Assembly: GCA_965541585.1 (NCBI GenBank)
Contig: CBEUCH010000014.1
Span: forward strand, 22,391-86,390
Length of the DNA: 64,000 nucleotides
Source: an uncultured bacterium
GTDB taxonomy: Bacteria > Zixibacteria > MSB-5A5 > UBA10806
Direction of reading: 5' to 3'
Program-made: the position numbers and the translations under genes
Shown here: piece after piece, positions 22,106 through 40,787 of the stretch
Layout: each line of letters opens with the position of its first letter
How positions within the stretch are numbered: position 1 is the stretch's first letter
The notes under the pieces: model-generated
Told to the model about the DNA's origin: nothing
Seen by the model: only the letters and a program-made list of their open reading frames with translations
Databases searched by the model: none

Positions 22106-23074
22106 ATGCCAACCCTCACAGTCGGCAAGTTGATCTCGGAAAAGCGTGATTTTCTGGAACTGTTTCCGCTTCTGGAGGGGATAGGATATGAGAAGTCTCT
22201 GAAGGACAGCCAGATTCATCGTCCCGGGCTGGCCCTGACGGGATTTAACGAACGGTTTCCCAATGATAGAACCCAGGTTCTCGGGCAGACGGAGATTTCC
22301 TATCTGAATAGCCTTACAGACAGCCAGCTCGACGAGCGTTTAGCTAATCTATTCGCCTTTGATATTCCTCTTTTTATTGTAACCAAAGGCATGGTTCCTC
22401 CGAATAAATTTCTCCGTTACGCCGAAAATTCCGGCACTGCGGTTTTGCAGACAAATCTTTCGACGACAGAATTGATAGGCCGGCTCTCTGCTTATCTTAT
22501 CAACATTTTCGCTCCCCAGACCACTATTCACGGTTCATTGGTGGATGTTTATGGTGTTGGCCTTCTTTATACGGGAAAATCGGGGATAGGAAAGTCCGAA
22601 TGCGCTCTCGATCTCGTCGAACGGGGGCATAGGTTGGTGGCCGATGACTCCATAAAGATCACGAAAAAGACGCCCGACGTTATCGTGGGCCATGCGGTCG
22701 AAAAACTGGGCCATCATATGGAAGTACGCGGCATCGGGATCATCGATATTGAAAAACTGTTCGGGATAAGGGCTATTAGATTGCAGAAAAGGATCGAGGT
22801 GGAGGTTCGTCTGGAACGCTGGGATGAATCCAAGGAATATGATCGCCTGGGGATCGATGATCATCGGACGTCGATACTGGGAGTTGAAATTCCTTATGTG
22901 GTTATCCCGGTTTCCCCGGGAAAGAATATAACGGTGATTTCCGAGGTCATCAGCATGAATCATATGCTGAAAGTCTACGGCGAAAACACCGCCCAGAGAT
23001 TTATTCAGAAGCTAACGGAGGAAATCGCTCGTAGGAAGACCACGCTGGCTTATCTCGAGGCTGATATGGAATAG
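22106..23074 (+). CDS. hprK: HPr(Ser) kinase/phosphorylase
   Basis: HRPGLAL, GKSGIGKSE, LVADD and MEVRGIGII motifs. Confidence 0.95.
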   Translation: MPTLTVGKLISEKRDFLELFPLLEGIGYEKSLKDSQIHRPGLALTGFNERFPNDRTQVLGQTEISYLNSLTDSQLDERLANLFAFDIPLFIVTKGMVPPNKFLRYAENSGTAVLQTNLSTTELIGRLSAYLINIFAPQTTIHGSLVDVYGVGLLYTGKSGIGKSECALDLVERGHRLVADDSIKITKKTPDVIVGHAVEKLGHHMEVRGIGIIDIEKLFGIRAIRLQKRIEVEVRLERWDESKEYDRLGIDDHRTSILGVEIPYVVIPVSPGKNITVISEVISMNHMLKVYGENTAQRFIQKLTEEIARRKTTLAYLEADME

Positions 23075-30780: not shown

Positions 30781-31135
30781 GGGGGCGACAGGTTTCGACG
30801 GGATGACTGATGTCTGACCTGCGCGTCGAGGTCCCGGTAACCTCGTAAAACAATCGGGAAACCTTACAAGTGCCGACGATTATTCGTACGCACTGGCTGC
30901 CTAAGACACTGGCGGCTCGTTCTACCTGGATTTGCTTATCGGTCCGGGATAGAGCGTCGATTAGATAAGATAGCGGCATAAACCGTCCCCGATTATGTCG
31001 CGAAACAAAAGGGGGCTGGACGGGAGGAAAGCCCGGCGATCGGCGTTTCTCCTGTTGAGATTAAATATTCGCCTACGCGCGTAGACGGTTATTCGGAGGC
31101 ATTTTCGGACGGGGGTTCGATTCCCCCCGCCTCCA
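30781..31135 (+). ncRNA. ssrA: tmRNA; tag (A)ADDYSYALAA
   Basis: 5' GGGGGCG pairs with 3' CGCCTCC(A) including the G3:U pair; T-arm GGGGG-TTCGATT-CCCCC; tag frame 30872-30904 ends ALAA-TAA. Confidence 0.97.
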
Positions 31136-31153
31136 TTAATTTGTCTTGACAAT

Positions 31154-31414
31154 ATGATTTATCTTTATGTATTACAGGGCGAAAAGGGTAAGCGCTATGT
31201 TGGTATTACCAACAACTTAGAACGCCGTTTATCTGAACATCGTAGCGGAAAAACTAAGGGCGGACAAATCATAGGTAAGTTTAAACTACTGCACATTGAG
31301 AAATTTGAAGATTATAAAGAAGCTCGGAAACGCGAGGTATTCCTTAAATCAGGAGTTGGCCGTGAGTGGTTAAATCAAGAATTTCCTCGGACGGGGTCCG
31401 CCGAAGGCGGATAA
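31154..31414 (+). CDS. Stand-alone GIY-YIG nuclease (86 aa)
   Basis: YLYVL..RYVGIT..ERRLSEH..ARKREVFLKSG; stop codon lies inside the palindromic insert of the repeat. Confidence 0.9.
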   Translation: MIYLYVLQGEKGKRYVGITNNLERRLSEHRSGKTKGGQIIGKFKLLHIEKFEDYKEARKREVFLKSGVGREWLNQEFPRTGSAEGG

Positions 31415-31458
31415 AGCTTGGTCGCCTCCGGCGACTTCGATTCCCCCCGCCTCCACCA
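31387..31458 (+). repeat. tmRNA 3'-end copy 2 with 39-nt double-hairpin insert; ends in CCA
   Basis: Matches tmRNA 31105-31135 except one T-stem G is replaced by TCCGCCGAAGGCGGATAAAGCTTGGTCGCCTCCGGCGAC (31397-31435). Confidence 0.95.
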
Positions 31459-31797
31459 ATTGCAAGTGCCTATGTTACAACAGGATATAGAAACAACTGG
31501 CAGAGCATTATTGCCGTGATCCCCCACCTATCATCCAATAACTTTTATGACTAAGAATAACCTAAGACCGTTTTGGGCACGATTTGGCCGCACTCTATTT
31601 TGCCGATTATGAAACCTAATTAATACTATATTGGAAATAAAGATGCATTTTACGATTTCTTGTTGTATATATAAAAAGTAATTAGATATTAGAAATATGA
31701 AAAGTAAAAGACTTTACCACAGAATTGATGAGGTCTGGCAGGTGCGAGCGATGACGAGGAAGCAACTCGAGGAGAAGAAATAGGGATACTTTAACTC

Positions 31798-32808
31798 ATG
31801 ACTCCCAATGATAAGGCATCGCTCAGCGAAGAGGCTATAGAAAGGCAATATCCTGATATCTATAATTCTCTTATGCCGCTCCTTCGTAGGTCCCAGCCGG
31901 GTTCACTAGACGCGTACTTGGAAACGGTTGCCTGCGACGTGAATATTGAGCAAACTCAAACTAATGCTCATTGTAGATTCATTGCTTTGGATGGAAACAA
32001 GAGAGCACGGGTTAAGGATTTTGTACGATTCATTGGAAAAAAAATTACAGATTTTGCGATTCCGCGTGGTGAGATAAACCGTGCTTTGAACGAAGGAGCA
32101 AAAACAAGTTCAACAGCCCCAGTAGATAAACTTAGTAAAAAAGCAAGGAACCTTTTTACTCGTTTGCCTAAAAGTGGTGAAGGAGGAGAGGTTCTGCTTT
32201 CAATCTTAGCCGAAACCATCCTTCGCCTGCCTCAGCTGTTTACAAAAATGGTTTTAAAAACCAATGCCAATATGCATGTTCACGGAAGTGATGCCATTCA
32301 CTTCGGGATTAACCAATCGAATGGTAGTCTTGCACTGTATTGGGGAGAGTCAAAACTTTATGCAGATGCGGGCGCGGCTATTAGAGAATGTTTTACTAGT
32401 CTTGCACCATTCCTGTTGGGCGCAGGTGGCAGCGGGGCGGCGCAGGAACGCGACCTGCAACTCATGCGTGATGGGATCGATCTAGATGACATCAAACTTG
32501 AAAATGCGCTGAAACAATACCTCGATCCGGACAGCACCATGTTTAAACAGTTTGAATACCGGGGTCTATGCCTTGTTGGATTTAACTCGGAGGCTTATCC
32601 AACATCACCAAACTCACCGGAGGCAAATCAATTAAAACAAAAGATCGAAACGACCTTTGACAATTGCAAAAACCAAATCCAGAATCGTGTATTAGCAGAG
32701 AGAATAGAAACTTTCACGATTGAATTATTCTGTGTTCCCTTCCCAAAGGTTGACGATTTCCGAAGTGCCTTCCGTGAAGAATTGGGGTTGCCGGATGGGC
32801 AAAGCTGA
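31798..32808 (+). CDS. hamA: Hachiman HamA (DUF1837 nuclease)
   Basis: SGEGGEVLL, HVHGSDAIH and LYWGESKLY motifs; overlaps a helicase gene. Confidence 0.85.
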   Translation: MTPNDKASLSEEAIERQYPDIYNSLMPLLRRSQPGSLDAYLETVACDVNIEQTQTNAHCRFIALDGNKRARVKDFVRFIGKKITDFAIPRGEINRALNEGAKTSSTAPVDKLSKKARNLFTRLPKSGEGGEVLLSILAETILRLPQLFTKMVLKTNANMHVHGSDAIHFGINQSNGSLALYWGESKLYADAGAAIRECFTSLAPFLLGAGGSGAAQERDLQLMRDGIDLDDIKLENALKQYLDPDSTMFKQFEYRGLCLVGFNSEAYPTSPNSPEANQLKQKIETTFDNCKNQIQNRVLAERIETFTIELFCVPFPKVDDFRSAFREELGLPDGQS

Positions 32809-35398
32809 TTTCCAAGACTGGCTTCTTCAAAATTCGGGTTTTCAAAATCAATATCATCTTTTGATCATCGACTCTGTTGCTAGCCAATTTCCCAACCTGA
32901 AACGAAATGATCATTATGACCAGACAAAGCATGACTGGAATTATTTGTTGTTATGTGCCAGTTTACTTGCGCAGTCGGAAACTGAGAAGTGTCAAAGTGC
33001 TGCCCTTCGAATCTCTCAGTATTGCTTGGAATGTGCAAGTACGTCAGAGGTAGAAAAAGATGCAGCAGCAGTTGTCTTAGATACTCTGGCGAACCGCCCA
33101 GCGATTAAATTAGCAGAAGAGCGAGAGCTTATCCAGCCGGGCTATTCGGATAGAATACCGTTCCCTCTTTTCCAGGAATGGACCCGCCATTCTATTGAGA
33201 ATTCAATCACGTTATCTAATGCCGAAACCATACGGGCGAACAAGTTTCAATGCAGGTTTTGGGAAAGCGTCAAACGCTATGATCGGATCAGCATTTCAGC
33301 TCCTACATCTGCCGGCAAATCATTCATAATTGGACGTTGGTTGGCTGAATACCTGCGAAAGAATCAAAGGGCATCAATTATTTATATTGTGCCAACACGC
33401 GCACTTATACAGCAAGTCCAGCGAGATATAAGGGACGTACTCAAATGTGAAGTTATCGAAAACGTAGAGGTTACCACTCTACCACTGAGAGCATCTTTTA
33501 AGGCTGACAGGGCAAACATATTTGTTTTCACCCAAGAACGGTTTCATATCCTCCTTGCAGCGTTCAACAATAATGTGCCAGTAGATCTGTTGATAATTGA
33601 TGAAGCTCAGAAGATAGGAGATAATTATCGGGGCGTATTATTGCAACAGGCCATTGAAGCCATCTCTCAAAGAAGACCAGCAGCTAATTTCCTCTTTTCC
33701 AGCCCAATGACGGATAATCCAAAAGTGTTGCTTGAAGATGCCCCTGATGGAGTTTCTCAAGACGCCATCGTAAGTGAAGATACTACAGTCAACCAGAATC
33801 TTATTTGGGCGTCGCAGGTCCCAAGGAAACCTTGTACTTGGAGTGTTGATTTGATTCTACAAGAAGACGCTGTCGAAATAGGTAAAATAGAACTTTCGAC
33901 AAGTCCGACACATACAAGTAAACGTTTGCCGTTCGTTGCGTTCTCTTTAGGCAACTCAAAAGGGGGAAACATTATTTACGTCAACGGCGCTGCCGATGCG
34001 GAGAAGACCGCCAAGCAACTCTATGATTTGATCGGAAATGATTCGAACACACCGGGAGATACGGAATTATGCGATCTCATCGAACTAATTCGCAAGACTA
34101 TTCATCGACACTATTCACTTGGAAACGTCATCAGTCGAGGGGTTGCTTTTCACTATGGTAATATGCCGCTCCTTGTCCGGACAGAAATTGAAAGATTGTT
34201 CCGTGCCAACAAGATTAAATACCTGGTATGTACATCAACACTGATTGAAGGCATGAATATGCCGTGCCAAAGCATATTCGTCCGAGGGCCAACGAAAGGG
34301 AAAGGAAATCCTATGACATCAAGTGATTTCTGGAATCTTGCCGGACGCGCCGGACGATGGGGCAAAGAATTTCAGGGTAATATTGTTTGTGTCGATCCTC
34401 GGAAAGACAATGTATGGAAGAATGGTGCCCCAAAGGGGCGAACGAGGTTCAGGATAAATAGAACAGCGGATGACGTCCTTTTAAATCAGGAGGAGAAGCT
34501 ACTCAAATTTATTGATACTGGCACACCACGAAATGAAGCACGTAAGGACCCAAATTTGGAGTATGTATTTTCCTTCCTTGTCTCATCATACATACGCAAC
34601 AACGGTATTGTAACTGCACCCTGGGCAAAACGTTATCCTGAAGAGTTTGTTAATAAGCTGGAAGCAAAAATCAAAAGTATAATTGAGAGTATTGCTATAC
34701 CAGAAGAAGTCATCCTGCGGAATCCGGGCATTAGCCCAATCGCAATGAATGATCTTCTTGGATATTTCCATGAGCGGACAGCTAATCGTAATGAACCTGT
34801 TGAAACGCTGATTCCCGTTCGGGCAGAGAGTGATGATGCATTCGATGAATATGCAAAGATTCTTAACCGAATCAACAAGTGTCTAGGATACGAGTTTGGC
34901 AGTGGAAAACGAGTGCGGCAACTTGCTTTATTGATCGTTGACTGGATGAAAGGCTATCCATTGGCACGGATTATATCTAGCCGTGAAAGCTATTATGGCT
35001 CCAGCGATTTGCCAGCATTGATAAGGAATACCATGAATGATGTGGAAGAATATGCACGTTTTCATGCGCCAAAGTATCTTGCATGCTATGTGGATATTCT
35101 AAAGGTGCATTTAGCCAAAAATGAGCGCCATGATCTTATTGAAAGCTTGCTGGAGCTTAATGTTCTCCTTGAGTTTGGCGTTTCACATAAGACTCAGCTT
35201 TCACTTATGGGATTAGGGCTGAGTCGGACGAGCGTTATTACAATATCAGAGTTCATCGCTGAAGACTCACTAAATGAATCTGAATGTTTGCAGTGGTTAA
35301 AAGAAAATGATTGGATGACACAAGATATGCCTGAAATCATCAAACGAGAAGTAGGAAATCTACTAACGAGCCGCCAAGAGGTAGGCACAGAGGAATAG
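32795..35398 (+). CDS. hamB: Hachiman HamB (Ski2-like SF2 helicase)
   Basis: APTSAGKS, TQER, IDEAQ, FHYGNMP, CTSTLIEGMN and NLAGRAGR motifs; ATG 32795 overlaps hamA. Confidence 0.85.
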   Translation: MGKADFQDWLLQNSGFQNQYHLLIIDSVASQFPNLKRNDHYDQTKHDWNYLLLCASLLAQSETEKCQSAALRISQYCLECASTSEVEKDAAAVVLDTLANRPAIKLAEERELIQPGYSDRIPFPLFQEWTRHSIENSITLSNAETIRANKFQCRFWESVKRYDRISISAPTSAGKSFIIGRWLAEYLRKNQRASIIYIVPTRALIQQVQRDIRDVLKCEVIENVEVTTLPLRASFKADRANIFVFTQERFHILLAAFNNNVPVDLLIIDEAQKIGDNYRGVLLQQAIEAISQRRPAANFLFSSPMTDNPKVLLEDAPDGVSQDAIVSEDTTVNQNLIWASQVPRKPCTWSVDLILQEDAVEIGKIELSTSPTHTSKRLPFVAFSLGNSKGGNIIYVNGAADAEKTAKQLYDLIGNDSNTPGDTELCDLIELIRKTIHRHYSLGNVISRGVAFHYGNMPLLVRTEIERLFRANKIKYLVCTSTLIEGMNMPCQSIFVRGPTKGKGNPMTSSDFWNLAGRAGRWGKEFQGNIVCVDPRKDNVWKNGAPKGRTRFRINRTADDVLLNQEEKLLKFIDTGTPRNEARKDPNLEYVFSFLVSSYIRNNGIVTAPWAKRYPEEFVNKLEAKIKSIIESIAIPEEVILRNPGISPIAMNDLLGYFHERTANRNEPVETLIPVRAESDDAFDEYAKILNRINKCLGYEFGSGKRVRQLALLIVDWMKGYPLARIISSRESYYGSSDLPALIRNTMNDVEEYARFHAPKYLACYVDILKVHLAKNERHDLIESLLELNVLLEFGVSHKTQLSLMGLGLSRTSVITISEFIAEDSLNESECLQWLKENDWMTQDMPEIIKREVGNLLTSRQEVGTEE

Positions 35399-35440
35399 TT
35401 GAAAGGCAAAGTGTAAGAGCTCGGTGTGCTTTGGTTATTT

Positions 35441-35537
35441 GCGCGTAGACTGTTATTCGGAGGCATTTTCGGACGGGGTCCGCCGAAGGCGGATAAAGCT
35501 TGGTCGCCTCCGGCGACTTCGATTCCCCCCGCCTCCA
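35441..35537 (+). repeat. tmRNA 3'-end copy 3 with the same 39-nt insert
   Basis: Matches tmRNA 31077-31135 with one mismatch, plus the identical insert at 35479-35517. Confidence 0.95.
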
Positions 35538-35789
35538 GTAAAGTATCTTATTGCATAGTAACGGGCTATACCCGGACGGGGGATCCGTACCCCGAATTTT
35601 GAGGTTTTTTCCCCCTTTAATCCTCAATAACTTAAAATAACTTGAAACCTAAATAGTCACAATTTCGTAAAAAAATAAGGTCGGGCCGAAGAAAGAGATT
35701 TGCTATTCCTACAGAAATTGGCCCTGTCAAATAGTACTTAGCAAATCAGAGGTGACAACCTGAAGAATGAAAGAAAGGCGGAAAAAGCA

Positions 35790-36161: not shown

Positions 36162-36352
36162 ATGCGGTCAGGTTCTGGCGGGGTTGGCTGCATCTTTCTA
36201 ATTTTCCTATATCCCCTCATAACTTAGAATAACAGAAAACCTATATTGTCCCAATTTGAAGAAACCGGATTTAGCTTGTAATTATCAAAACCGTCTCTTA
36301 AGATTTTAACGGTTCTGTTAAAAAGGTTCTGACGACGTACAAGGAAATTCAA

Positions 36353-37342: not shown

Positions 37343-37452
37343 CAAAGCGTTGCAGTGGACGGCGGAGAGCTGTGGTTTTTAATAATGTTTTTTAAAACCG
37401 TCACAATTTGGTCACACCACCTGTTAGCTTGTTGCTAGACAATAGGGATAAT

Positions 37453-37476
37453 GGGGTTCGATTCCCCACGTTCCCA
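37453..37476 (+). repeat. Degenerate tmRNA/tRNA 3'-end remnant (copy 4, no insert)
   Basis: GGGGTTCGATTCCCCACGTTCCCA versus tmRNA GGGGTTCGATTCCCCCCGCCTCCA. Confidence 0.6.
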
Positions 37477-37712
37477 TATGATGCAATTGTTTATTTATAG
37501 GCGGATTCCAGTTAAGCATGGCCTCAACAATAATCGGTAGTTACGAACCAGGAATTGCAGCAAATCCCTACGCATCATAGGCCACAAACAACATTCTTGA
37601 CAAAATTATCAATATTTATTATTTTTACCAAAACAGGCGTCACAGTATTGTGCCTGCCTTGTCTTCGAAGTCGATTAATGCAACTGCTCAAAACCCCAAA
37701 CAAGGAGAGATC

Positions 37713-40700
37713 ATGTTTTCTAGTGGAAAGTCTGTGTCCGGCTTAATTGGGGCACTGCTGTTTTCAGCAACCATGTCGACGATAGGCGCTCAAGCCGAAA
37801 ACGATGTCGCAGGCGACGTAAAATCATCTGGTTTGATTACTTCGGTACCACGGACTATGTCTTATCAGGGGTATCTAAAAGACGCGGGGGGGCTACCCGT
37901 ATCAGACACTCTCGAAATCACTTTCCGTATCTATGATGTCGAATCAGGGGGAAGCGCCCTATGGACGGAAACGGTTGCCGCCGTATCAATCATTGACGGT
38001 AACTTCACCGCCATCGTCGGAGAAACCACTCCGATAAACTTGAGCTTCGATGTCGACTACTGGATGTCGTTGCAGGTGGAGGGCGATCCCCTGGAGATGG
38101 ACCCGAGACTGAAACTTCATATGTCGGCTTACGCGGCACGAAGCGACACGACCGATTATGCCCTCAACTCCGATTTGCTGGATGGTCTCGACTCGGGCGA
38201 TTTTGCCGGTTCCGCTCATGACCATGACGCGGATTATGTCAACGAGGGGCAGGCAAATTCCGTTACAGGCGCTATGGTAGTTGATGGCACGGTACAGTTT
38301 GGCGACATTGGCCAGAACGGCGCCTCCGCAGGCCAGATTATGAAATGGAATGGTTCGGCCTGGATTGCGGATAATGATGAGACTGGACCAGGGGGTGGCA
38401 GTGGCTGGGTCGATGATGGTAATTATATCAGGTTAGAGACGGGCACTGATTCTGTCGGAATAGGCACGGCCACGCCATCGGAAAAGCTGGAGGTTGCAGG
38501 GAGTATTCTGGTAACCGATAAAGCCACCATCGGTCCAAGCAACTCAAATACCGGTGCGAACGCGTTTGTGGCAGGTTTAGCCAATACGGTAAGCGGAGAT
38601 TGGACTACAATCGGCGGTGGTCGGATAAACACGGCAAGCGGCCATGATGCGGTGATCGGAGGCGGTCGAGGCAACACTGCCAGCAGCTCATATTATGCCA
38701 CGGTCGGCGGCGGCAACGAAAACACCGCCGGCGCTGGTGGCGCTACTATAAGTGGCGGAAGATTTAATCTGTGCAACGCGGATTACGCAACTGTCGGCGG
38801 AGGTTATGCCGATACTGCCAGCGGGGCCTCTTCCACAATCGGCGGAGGTTGGAGTAATATCGCTAGTGGAGTAGAAGCTACAGTCAGCGGAGGTCAGATG
38901 AATATCGCCGCCGGCCAACAGGCATCGATCGGCGGTGGAAGTCAAAACTCCGCAAGCGGTTTCAGAGCTACGGTCGGTGGAGGTGTGGGAAATTTTGCTA
39001 CCGGAGACAATGCAACGATCGCTGGCGGCTTCGGTAACCACGCAACCGCGAATGGTGCGACAGTAGGGGGCGGCAGTACGAACACCGCCAGCGGTACCGC
39101 CGCCACTGTTCCGGGCGGGAATATGAATGAAGCTGCCGGTATTTACTCTTTTGCCGCCGGCCGTCGAGCTAAAGCTAATCACATTGGAGCATTTGTGTGG
39201 GCAGATCAGACCAACTCGGATTTTGCCTCCACCGGTGTCGATCAATTCCTCATTCGTGCGTCAGGGGGTGTTGGAATCGGTACGACGAGTCCAGCATCGG
39301 AATTGGATGTTGCCGGCACCATCCAGGCTACCGGATTTATGATGACCACCGGTGCCTCCGACGGATATATTCTCACCTCCGATGCCTCGGGATCAGGATC
39401 TTGGCAATCTCCGGCCCCCAGCGGCGGCTGGATAGATGATGGAAATGCTGTCAGGCTGGAGACAGTTAACGATTCGGTTGGTATTGGAACTGCTACGCCG
39501 TCGGAAAAATTGGATGTTTCAGGTAATATCCTGGTGAGCGGAACGGCGACTATCGGAACGGGACATACCAACACAGGCACGAGCGCTTTCTTAGCGGGGG
39601 AGAACAATACGGCCAGTGGAAATTACACCGCTGTTGGTGGAGGTCTGAATAACACCTCAAGTGCGAATTACGCGACAGTCAGCGGCGGCTGGAATAACAA
39701 CGCCGGAGAGATAAACGCAACAGTCGGTGGCGGTTGGGACAATGCTGCCAATGGGCAATACTCAGTTGTCGCCGGAGGAAGGGAGAACACCGCCGGTATA
39801 GATTTCGCCTCGGTTGGTGGCGGAGCTTATAACTTCGCGGGCATCAGCAGCTACGCTACTGTCGCCGGGGGGTATGCCGACACCGCCAGCGGAGGCTACG
39901 CCACAGTTAGCGGCGGTCAAAGTAACATCGCCAGCGAGCAAAATGCGGCCGTGGGTGGCGGTAGTAACAATTCTGCCAGCGGTACGTATGCGACCGTTGC
40001 CGGCGGTCGAGACAATATCAGTTCAGGGCAAAATGCGACGATTGGCGGCGGTACTACTAACACGGCCAACGGCGGTAGTGCTACAGTTGCCGGTGGTGGA
40101 AATAATATTTCCAGCGGTTCGTCCAGCACAATCGGTGGAGGAGACAGTAATACCTCCGGTGCCAGTTCCAGTACTGTAGGCGGCGGAAAGAGAAACAATG
40201 CCAGCGGATATGTCAGCACAATCGGTGGTGGTCAGGATAACATAGCCAGTAACCAATATGCTACTGTGCCGGGTGGATATTTAAATGAGGCGACAGGTAT
40301 TTATTCCTTCGCGGCCGGGCGTCGGGCTAAAGCCAATCATGATGGGGCTTTCGTATGGGGCGACCGGACCAACGCGGATATAACTTCCTCCGCTGCAGAT
40401 GAATTCAAAATACGCGCCTCCGGCGGAACCTATCTATACTCTAACTCCAGTCTCACCGCAGGTGTAACGCTGGCGGCCGGAGCTTCATCCTGGAGTTCCG
40501 TTTCCGACAGCACGCTAAAGCGTAATATCAGACAGGTAAACGGTGAAGAAATTCTCGAAAAACTGGCACAGTTACCCATCAGCCAGTGGAGCTATAAAGC
40601 TCAGGATGAAAGCATTGAACATATCGGCCCGATGGCACAGGATTTCTATGAGATCTTCGGGCTCGGCGCCGACAACAAAACGATCTCTACGATAGATCCG

Positions 40701-40787
40701 TCGGGGATAGCTCTAGCCGGTATACAAGCGTTATTGGATGAAATCGAACTATTGAAAGCCCGTATCGCCGAGCTTGAAGGTAAGTAA
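37713..40787 (+). CDS. Secreted Gly-rich repeat fibre/adhesin with C-terminal peptidase S74 intramolecular chaperone
   Basis: AAGGAG SD and signal peptide; many ~14-aa ATVGGGxxNxASG repeats; SDSTLKRNI..HIGPMAQDF S74 motifs; coiled-coil end. Confidence 0.85.
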   Translation: MFSSGKSVSGLIGALLFSATMSTIGAQAENDVAGDVKSSGLITSVPRTMSYQGYLKDAGGLPVSDTLEITFRIYDVESGGSALWTETVAAVSIIDGNFTAIVGETTPINLSFDVDYWMSLQVEGDPLEMDPRLKLHMSAYAARSDTTDYALNSDLLDGLDSGDFAGSAHDHDADYVNEGQANSVTGAMVVDGTVQFGDIGQNGASAGQIMKWNGSAWIADNDETGPGGGSGWVDDGNYIRLETGTDSVGIGTATPSEKLEVAGSILVTDKATIGPSNSNTGANAFVAGLANTVSGDWTTIGGGRINTASGHDAVIGGGRGNTASSSYYATVGGGNENTAGAGGATISGGRFNLCNADYATVGGGYADTASGASSTIGGGWSNIASGVEATVSGGQMNIAAGQQASIGGGSQNSASGFRATVGGGVGNFATGDNATIAGGFGNHATANGATVGGGSTNTASGTAATVPGGNMNEAAGIYSFAAGRRAKANHIGAFVWADQTNSDFASTGVDQFLIRASGGVGIGTTSPASELDVAGTIQATGFMMTTGASDGYILTSDASGSGSWQSPAPSGGWIDDGNAVRLETVNDSVGIGTATPSEKLDVSGNILVSGTATIGTGHTNTGTSAFLAGENNTASGNYTAVGGGLNNTSSANYATVSGGWNNNAGEINATVGGGWDNAANGQYSVVAGGRENTAGIDFASVGGGAYNFAGISSYATVAGGYADTASGGYATVSGGQSNIASEQNAAVGGGSNNSASGTYATVAGGRDNISSGQNATIGGGTTNTANGGSATVAGGGNNISSGSSSTIGGGDSNTSGASSSTVGGGKRNNASGYVSTIGGGQDNIASNQYATVPGGYLNEATGIYSFAAGRRAKANHDGAFVWGDRTNADITSSAADEFKIRASGGTYLYSNSSLTAGVTLAAGASSWSSVSDSTLKRNIRQVNGEEILEKLAQLPISQWSYKAQDESIEHIGPMAQDFYEIFGLGADNKTISTIDPSGIALAGIQALLDEIELLKARIAELEGK

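Follow-up and report, generated by a model that had tools for sequence, protein, structure and literature searches.

A 320-base cassette lies directly behind the intact transfer-messenger RNA (tmRNA) gene of an uncultured member of the Zixibacteria and consists of a small GIY-YIG nuclease gene followed by a spare tmRNA 3′ end that is interrupted by two 19-nt hairpin units. The locus is contained in a stretch of 64,000 nt (positions 22,391 to 86,390 of contig CBEUCH010000014.1, assembly GCA_965541585.1), which is referred to below as the window. The unit is a separate, dispersed repeat similar to repetitive extragenic palindromic (REP) sequences, inserted in hairpin loops without duplication, and the cassette is likely a selfish element of very small size. 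By analogy with the Ssn nucleases, we lean cautiously towards a mechanism in which the nuclease itself spreads both the cassette and the unit.

Two 19-nt units in a spare tmRNA end

A first-pass annotation of the window, made from its letters alone, had described an intact tmRNA gene, an 18-nt gap, an 86-aa GIY-YIG gene that terminates inside an insert in a displaced copy of the tmRNA end, and the same insert in a second, longer copy about 4 kb further on. All these features were confirmed: the tmRNA gene by ARAGORN and Rfam, the open reading frame (ORF) by a match to PF01541 (E 3e-14), its stop codon as the TAA of the insert, and the insert as an identical sequence at 31397–31435 and 35479–35517. 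The two copies are identical over 69 nt (31387–31455 and 35469–35537), copy 2 adding 38 nt of 5′ tmRNA likeness (37/38 identical), and the hairpin core occurs three times in the window against an expectation of 0.05. The tmRNA gene and the cassette have the following composition:

30781–31135, + strand: intact tmRNA gene, the target (ARAGORN; Rfam RF00023, 192.6 bits)
31116–31135, + strand: 20-bp direct repeat, left copy, from T54 to the discriminator base
31154–31414, + strand: gene for the 86-aa single-domain GIY-YIG nuclease; the stop codon is the TAA of the unit A tag
31387–31396, + strand: 10-nt relic of the variable loop and 5′ T-stem, encoding the nuclease C-terminus
31397–31415, − strand: unit A of copy 1, 19 nt, a 6-bp hairpin preceded on the minus strand by the tag TTTA; lies between tRNA positions 52 and 53
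31416, + strand: retained T-stem G53
31417–31435, + strand: unit B of copy 1, 19 nt, a 6-bp hairpin preceded by the tag CTTG; lies between G53 and position 54
31436–31455, + strand: 20-bp direct repeat, right copy; end of the 320-bp cassette

The insert had been interpreted as a single 39-nt element that replaces a T-stem G and whose removal would not restore the stem, an interpretation that does not hold. At 69 nt, the interrupted copy exceeds the 31-nt tmRNA end by 38 nt and runs through four T-stem bases, a hairpin with TAAA (unit A), a G, CTTG with a hairpin (unit B), and the T-loop. Each unit comprises a 4-nt tag (TTTA or CTTG) and a 15-nt hairpin, unit A being shaped on the minus strand like unit B. 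Excision of 31397–31415 and 31417–31435 with retention of G31416 restores the tmRNA end at 31 of 31 positions; because removal of both units gives this end exactly, G53 was kept, the argument from a stem that could not be restored fails, and a single 39-nt insert is rejected in favour of two units of 19 nt. The same operation on copy 2 yields a tmRNA match of 58/59. The unit length follows from locus L153, where unit A is accompanied by five tandem B units with a period of 19. Among the homologous loci collected for comparison (the best 80 of 255 relatives from a scan of species genomes), 12 were hand-picked for the absence of a middle piece, and unit removal left a clean tRNA-like end in 11 of them, in T-arms and D-arms alike, whereas L033 retained an extra piece. 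Many homologous loci contain an additional 11–20 nt between the G and unit B, resembling a decayed unit.

It is hardly conceivable that the interrupted copy serves as a functional RNA, be it an intron-bearing tmRNA end or a tRNA mimic. Although the copy folds into three stems, most of the tmRNA is missing from it, it has no Rfam match, and the number and position of units differ among loci. Furthermore, the known introns of the tmRNA T-loop are group I introns found in genes of at least 545 bp (PMC11915505), whereas here 38 nt are added, in partial copies only, with no Rfam match to an intron.

An assembly artefact was rejected for the insert and for its link to the nuclease gene. Metagenome contigs from runs X2 and X10, which belong to two studies, carry the whole insert with no differences, and in the X10 contig it stands directly 3′ of the nuclease gene end, so that a check of the junctions on independent assemblies finds both the insert and its gene junction in other runs. 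None of the contigs of the sequencing runs searched covers the entire 5.1-kb order of the locus. A joint of 35478 to 35518 with G between, seen in X2, X8 and X10, was considered as an empty form of copy 2 and discarded, as it arises when the intact tmRNA is mapped to copy 2. A promoter scan placed one sigma-70-like site 5′ of the tmRNA gene, and the promoter/terminator scan detected no terminator between the tmRNA and nuclease genes, all counts being at the level of shuffled sequences.

Dispersal of the units and of the cassette

Near the 80 homologous loci we recorded 82 unit matches, 65 of them distinct, which were chosen on the tag and the inner GCC/GGC only. The three outer stem pairs, unused in the selection, are of the Watson-Crick type in 187 of 195 cases, compared to a shuffled mean of 106 (maximum 124 of 2000), in a count where relatives are not independent. 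The loops display 23 different sequences among the 65 distinct units, and the tags of the 82 matches are divided between CTTG (43) and TTTA (39). A pattern search recovered 87 units in genome G018 and 52 in G041, none in 13 of the 41 related genomes, and none with the reversed-pattern control. Within 20 stretches of G041 (24 matches), two units (L139, L151) lie within the hairpin loop of a further unit and two more (L144, L147) at the apex of a long hairpin, in every case without duplication. Stem pairing and dispersal in relatives thus bear out the earlier description of a REP-like palindrome, and the suggestion that it is tolerated only in non-functional copies is supported by the absence of units from all 75 intact tRNA and tmRNA genes within the 80 loci. 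Across the 3.52-Mb source genome, the 39-mer and each exact hairpin are confined to the two copies; it is in relatives that the tagged unit is dispersed.

The G018 units are near-identical and many lie at contig ends; no unit-flanked nuclease gene was found in that assembly. The source genome also contains, at 15 sites, GTAG-type REP-like palindromes distinct from the units, as well as 5′ tRNA-Met and tRNA-Asn copies arranged in tandem (C2:278100–278420 and C6:210440–210718), in which untagged GCC/GGC-core hairpins stand in place of D or anticodon arms.

The cassette recurs at many tRNA genes, in agreement with the expectation that the insert would be met near GIY-YIG homologues and tRNA genes elsewhere. 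An intact tRNA or tmRNA gene on the same strand is present within 200 nt at 62 of the 80 loci (39 upstream, 23 only downstream); of the 18 loci without such a neighbour, several are at contig ends. The same anatomy is observed at tmRNA and ten tRNA types, and the layout recurs in many phyla. Unit A follows the fourth T-stem base (52/53) in 28 of the 44 loci with a parsable upstream T-arm, and unit B is mostly found at 53/54, but also at 58/59, 59/60 and 60/61. The 10 nt 5′ of unit A show 42 differences from the local tRNA in 230 positions versus 2 in 276 for positions 61–72, a comparison that covers the 23 of 40 loci with all anchors and is subject to selection bias, the 3′ anchor having been chosen at no more than one mismatch (which dropped 5 loci; 12 more were without parent or unit A). 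Identity extends 0–10 nt past the discriminator at 20 of the 23 loci, which defines the left junction, and the right junction is fixed in the T-loop. We read this pattern as a putatively donor-derived hairpin end joined at the T-loop, together with a duplicated target end of 20–30 bp.

Comparison of ssrA loci, proposed in the first-pass annotation, revealed 4 filled and 25 empty alleles among 29 relatives, as far as the sequence available at each locus extends, three of the 25 being cut short or masked. This patchy occurrence at tmRNA, together with the absence from this contig of any of the six PF00589 (tyrosine integrase) matches in the genome, supports the notion of an integrase-free mobile unit. 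Tandem arrays of the cassette or of interrupted copies, reflecting local amplification, were seen at L004, L011, L025, L031, L036, L094, L114 and L116.

The junctions recall T4 SegB, a free-standing GIY-YIG homing endonuclease whose gene is likewise located beside tRNA genes and whose site is marked by a T-arm motif and the tRNA 3′ end; it recognises GGTTCRANTCC and cuts after CCAR at flexible positions (PMC2330249). Were the cassette to home in this manner, the nuclease would act on double-stranded DNA, recognising the T-arm motif and cutting near the tRNA 3′ end, repair templated by an allele with the cassette would copy the gene in, and the units would make the spare copies uncuttable. Both the position of the left junctions and the preference of unit A for 52/53 agree with such a scheme, and the copying of the insert into copy 2 would amount to its homing. 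However, the intact tmRNA keeps the same T-arm, identical to that of cassette-free relatives and differing from them only in the downstream flank, so that the host locus would remain a target; an unchanged T-arm beside the gene speaks against a simple rule of cutting unless interrupted. Whereas SegB cuts double-stranded DNA at a 27-bp site in phage crosses (PMC2330249), the cassette combines an 86-aa chromosomal protein, devoid of a separate DNA-binding domain, with a duplicated tRNA end and hairpin units, and units far from tRNAs would be left unexplained. Moreover, viral contigs contained no close homologue, the best matches by full E value reaching 41–43% over about 50 residues; with only such weak partial matches, a phage vehicle was rejected. 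SegB-like homing, although the main rival, appears unlikely, and we retain hairpin-guided nicking of single-stranded DNA as the preferred explanation.

The GIY-YIG protein and its possible mode of action

Residues Y5, G17, R25, H29 and E61 of the protein are invariant across 78 homologues, and Y15 is nearly so; in its small size, single domain and catalytic Tyr, Tyr and Glu, the protein agrees with the Ssn family. The structure was predicted with a pLDDT (predicted local distance difference test) of 81, and a fold search with this model returned UPF0213 proteins, HIGLE and Slx1 as the best matches, only the first at E < 0.001; the predicted fold is thus nearest to UPF0213 and Slx1-like structure-specific nucleases. 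NCBIfam and PADLOC profiles assigned no name to the nuclease. In a tree of 81 proteins (three loci left out as too short, 99 columns only), the window protein is placed inside a 40-row clade with support of 100/97. Tagged units are found within 200 nt at 35 of the 40 loci in the clade, compared to 6 of 41 outside it. The targets of the clade, tmRNA and the ten tRNA types, changed 17 times on the tree by our own labels, a number that may be inflated by poorly resolved forks.

Hairpin-guided nicking of single-stranded DNA is favoured because the tag-plus-hairpin unit has the form of an SsnA target. SsnA is a 94-aa GIY-YIG protein that binds a single-stranded DNA hairpin and cuts a few bases upstream, in dependence on the bases at the 5′ foot of the hairpin (PMC11893778). 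Like the cassette, Ssn (SsnA, CDD cd10448; Chenal et al. 2025, PMC11893778) comprises a single-domain GIY-YIG gene encoding fewer than 100 aa and, next to it, a hairpin of defined orientation whose short 5′ foot is non-palindromic, and the NTS/SRM hairpins are also dispersed in some genomes, an origin like that of insertion sequences being proposed by the authors (PMC11893778). By analogy, the window protein would bind the tag-plus-hairpin and cut a few bases away, as SsnA does at NTS, and the 3′ end of unit B would then be joined to a break in the T-loop. Duplication of the tRNA end would allow the target gene to survive, whereas units landing in a working tRNA would be purged and hence persist only in spare copies. 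The system is likely to work like Ssn/NTS and has the form of REP.

Nonetheless, the cassette differs from Ssn in several respects. Both of its tags lie at the same end of the gene and point towards one another, whereas the Ssn hairpins flank the gene (PMC11893778); furthermore, the cassette is inserted at tRNA ends with duplication, and the word tRNA does not appear in the main text of PMC11893778. A tree test in which the NTS-flanked paralogues of the source genome (C3, C7) and the loci L073 and L075 served as proxies in place of SsnA separated the two, grouping with the Ssn clade being rejected (approximately unbiased test, p-AU 0.017). Identity of the window protein to those paralogues is 31–33% (E 3e-4 to 1e-3). 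The SRM consensus is absent within 500 nt of the gene and at copy 2, and occurs once at paralogue C3 and not at C7.

The units share with the GTAG- and CGTC-tagged palindromes of REP and the REP-associated tyrosine transposases (RAYTs) a four-base tag, a short GC hairpin, dispersal, and pairing in opposite orientation (PMC3733652), but differ in their TTTA/CTTG tags, fixed length of 19 nt and 3-nt loop. This likeness would be expected if another enzyme, a Y1/RAYT transposase or some other, spread the units, the GIY-YIG gene being a passenger duplicated by ordinary recombination at tRNA ends. The clean insertions would suit a cut-and-rejoin enzyme, and there are unit-rich relatives without a unit-flanked GIY-YIG gene. 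Yet none of the 23 Y1_Tnp (PF01797) loci in five unit-rich genomes has a unit within 300–400 nt, and a RAYT as the driver was rejected on these grounds. The unit type also tracks the nuclease clade, other clades being associated with other palindromes, and at 17 of 34 loci the ORF ends in the TAA of the unit A tag. A passenger role for the nuclease is accordingly decidedly improbable.

Several observations weigh against spread by the nuclease. GIY-YIG enzymes act by hydrolysis of DNA, and no religation by them is known; clean 19-nt insertions would therefore need a separate joining step. No tagged unit is present near the GIY-YIG loci examined in the unit-rich genomes G018, G024, G029 and G034, and a tagged unit is nearby at only 1 of 15 GIY-YIG loci in five unit-rich genomes (15 of 18 matches were examined, in assemblies that break at units). 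Among the dispersed G041 units, 20 of 24 lack an obvious host hairpin. The units have not spread in the source genome, where 41 perfect core-type hairpins include only 4 that are tagged, all within the two copies, and the extra 11–20-nt middle piece in many homologues is not explained by unit removal. On balance, we still give a slight preference to a nuclease that would spread the cassette and the 19-nt tagged hairpin by nicking single-stranded DNA, with host repair joining the ends. The broader proposal is considerably more tentative, namely that a GIY-YIG hydrolase, not an HUH/DDE transposase or integrase, mobilises a two-tier selfish system consisting of a 320-bp cassette that travels from one tRNA or tmRNA gene to another, also between phyla, and of 19-nt units written into single-stranded DNA loops without target duplication.

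Additional GIY-YIG genes were noted in the course of this survey. A close homologue at tRNA-Pro (L017) is on a contig labelled archaeal, where misbinning is possible. Other GIY-YIG subclades (L046, L048, L050, L054, L059–L064, L069, L070) are found at tRNAs with other palindromes, among them a 20-nt palindrome and an untagged 30-nt double hairpin; here the gene is often upstream of the tRNA and the 5′ copy is interrupted in the D-arm. The source genome encodes a second small GIY-YIG gene right behind tRNA-Gly (C5:213700–214244, minus strand), between partial tRNA-Gly copies that bear another palindrome family, also before the T-loop. Two Ssn-like GIY-YIG genes (C3:160450–161050 and C7:98300–98920) have NTS-like hairpins on their flanks, and a further palindrome interrupts some of these hairpins.

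The second copy and the Hachiman island

The DNA between the two copies, overlooked in the first-pass annotation, encodes the HamA/HamB pair of Hachiman in a segment of 4.08 kb:

31542–31592, + strand: conserved island-end motif, putatively resembling the arm of an attachment (att) site (z 5–8 versus shuffles; flanks of 5/22 relatives)
31798–32808, + strand: HamA, the Hachiman nuclease (Pfam PF08878; PADLOC E 2e-115)
32720–35398, + strand: HamB, the Hachiman helicase, start codon not fixed (Pfam and PADLOC)
35441–35537, + strand: copy 2, the probable far junction of the Hachiman island, with 59 nt of tmRNA end and both units (A, 35479–35497; G, 35498; B, 35499–35517)
35615–35668, + strand: second island-end motif, 3′ of copy 2 (z 6–15; flanks of 4/22 relatives)

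Both copies are followed 80–135 nt on by a motif that trails the plain tmRNA in several relatives, and copy 2 would mark the distal end of an older Hachiman island that lacks an integrase. Islands at tRNA genes and integrase-less tandem ssrA islands, in which an intact gene is accompanied by a displaced 3′ fragment, provide a good description of the Hachiman segment (PMC4383910, PMC3146451), and stacks of the latter kind are known (PMC3146451). The nuclease cassette differs from such islands in its size of 320 bp and lack of an integrase. Islander rejects candidates that are shorter than 2 kb or lack an integrase (PMC4383910, PMC3146451); consequently, such cassettes would be filtered out by island finders.

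In a 4,037-nt contig from run X1, the beginning of a related Hachiman island is formed by 24 nt of uninterrupted tmRNA end, located at the copy 1 distance; this island has no nuclease gene and finishes in the same 5′ likeness, and a second X1 contig of similar depth carries an uninterrupted end followed by DNA like the copy 2 flank; it should be noted, as a point against this evidence, that the X1 joints consist of 24-nt sides at 85% likeness, which other organisms or repeats could yield. In run X2, the nuclease is joined to unit A, as is a longer tmRNA-like arm, and unit B then leads into two different flanks; in X10, the nuclease end and the whole insert are followed by a third flank. Given these arrangements, the cassette and the Hachiman island appear to occur apart. 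A degenerate pattern of tmRNA plus unit A matched only two loci in the metagenome contigs, both of the copy 1 type.

These contigs also bear on the possibility of a composite element, in which the nuclease cassette would mobilise the whole 4.4-kb stretch with Hachiman as cargo between unit-marked ends. The presence of the same units at both ends of the segment and the two flanks of the X2 insert would be compatible with it. Nevertheless, the related X1 island follows a tmRNA end that is accompanied by neither nuclease nor units, the island-end motifs behind both copies are also found behind plain tmRNAs in relatives, and tandem ssrA islands are known to do without an integrase (PMC3146451), which renders a composite element very improbable.

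Instead, because neither window unit recurs exactly in the 80 homologous loci, the four matching hairpins in the two copies point to copying, and copy 2 most likely received both units from copy 1. Gene conversion between the copies, mentioned as an alternative in the first-pass annotation, is therefore favoured by the identity of the four hairpins, whereas two independent nuclease-made insertions are not supported, considering also the loop diversity of the distinct units. Conversion or exchange could have proceeded over the identical flanks of 10 nt and 20 nt, and the nuclease may have assisted. The simplest order of events would be insertion of the island first and of the cassette second, followed by conversion of the far junction.

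This locus contributes the definition of a 19-nt unit with exact excision and a probable case of the copying of units into the junction of a defence island. We found no description of the cassette in the literature covered, which included few subscription journals; the tree and motif tables that supplement PMC11893778 might list the clade. Even in the REP/RAYT and NTS/Ssn systems, the way in which short palindromic repeats become inserted is unsettled; with unit boundaries, T-arm insertion positions, empty alleles and a candidate 86-aa enzyme defined, it can be reduced to an oligonucleotide assay. If active, the clade would constitute a second source of hairpin-guided single-stranded DNA nucleases beside Ssn, and if mobilisation by the GIY-YIG enzyme is true, few mobile elements would be as short as the units. 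Phages and defence islands use the sites occupied by the cassettes for attachment, and under the same assumption the copying of units into island junctions would alter the excision of defence islands such as Hachiman.

Farther downstream, the window contains additional motifs of the island-end type together with a degenerate tmRNA 3′ end (36210–36265, 37400–37416 and 37453–37477), and so at least two older integrase-less islands lie beyond copy 2. They are followed at 37650–40787 by a gene for a 1045-aa protein rich in 15-aa glycine-rich repeats.

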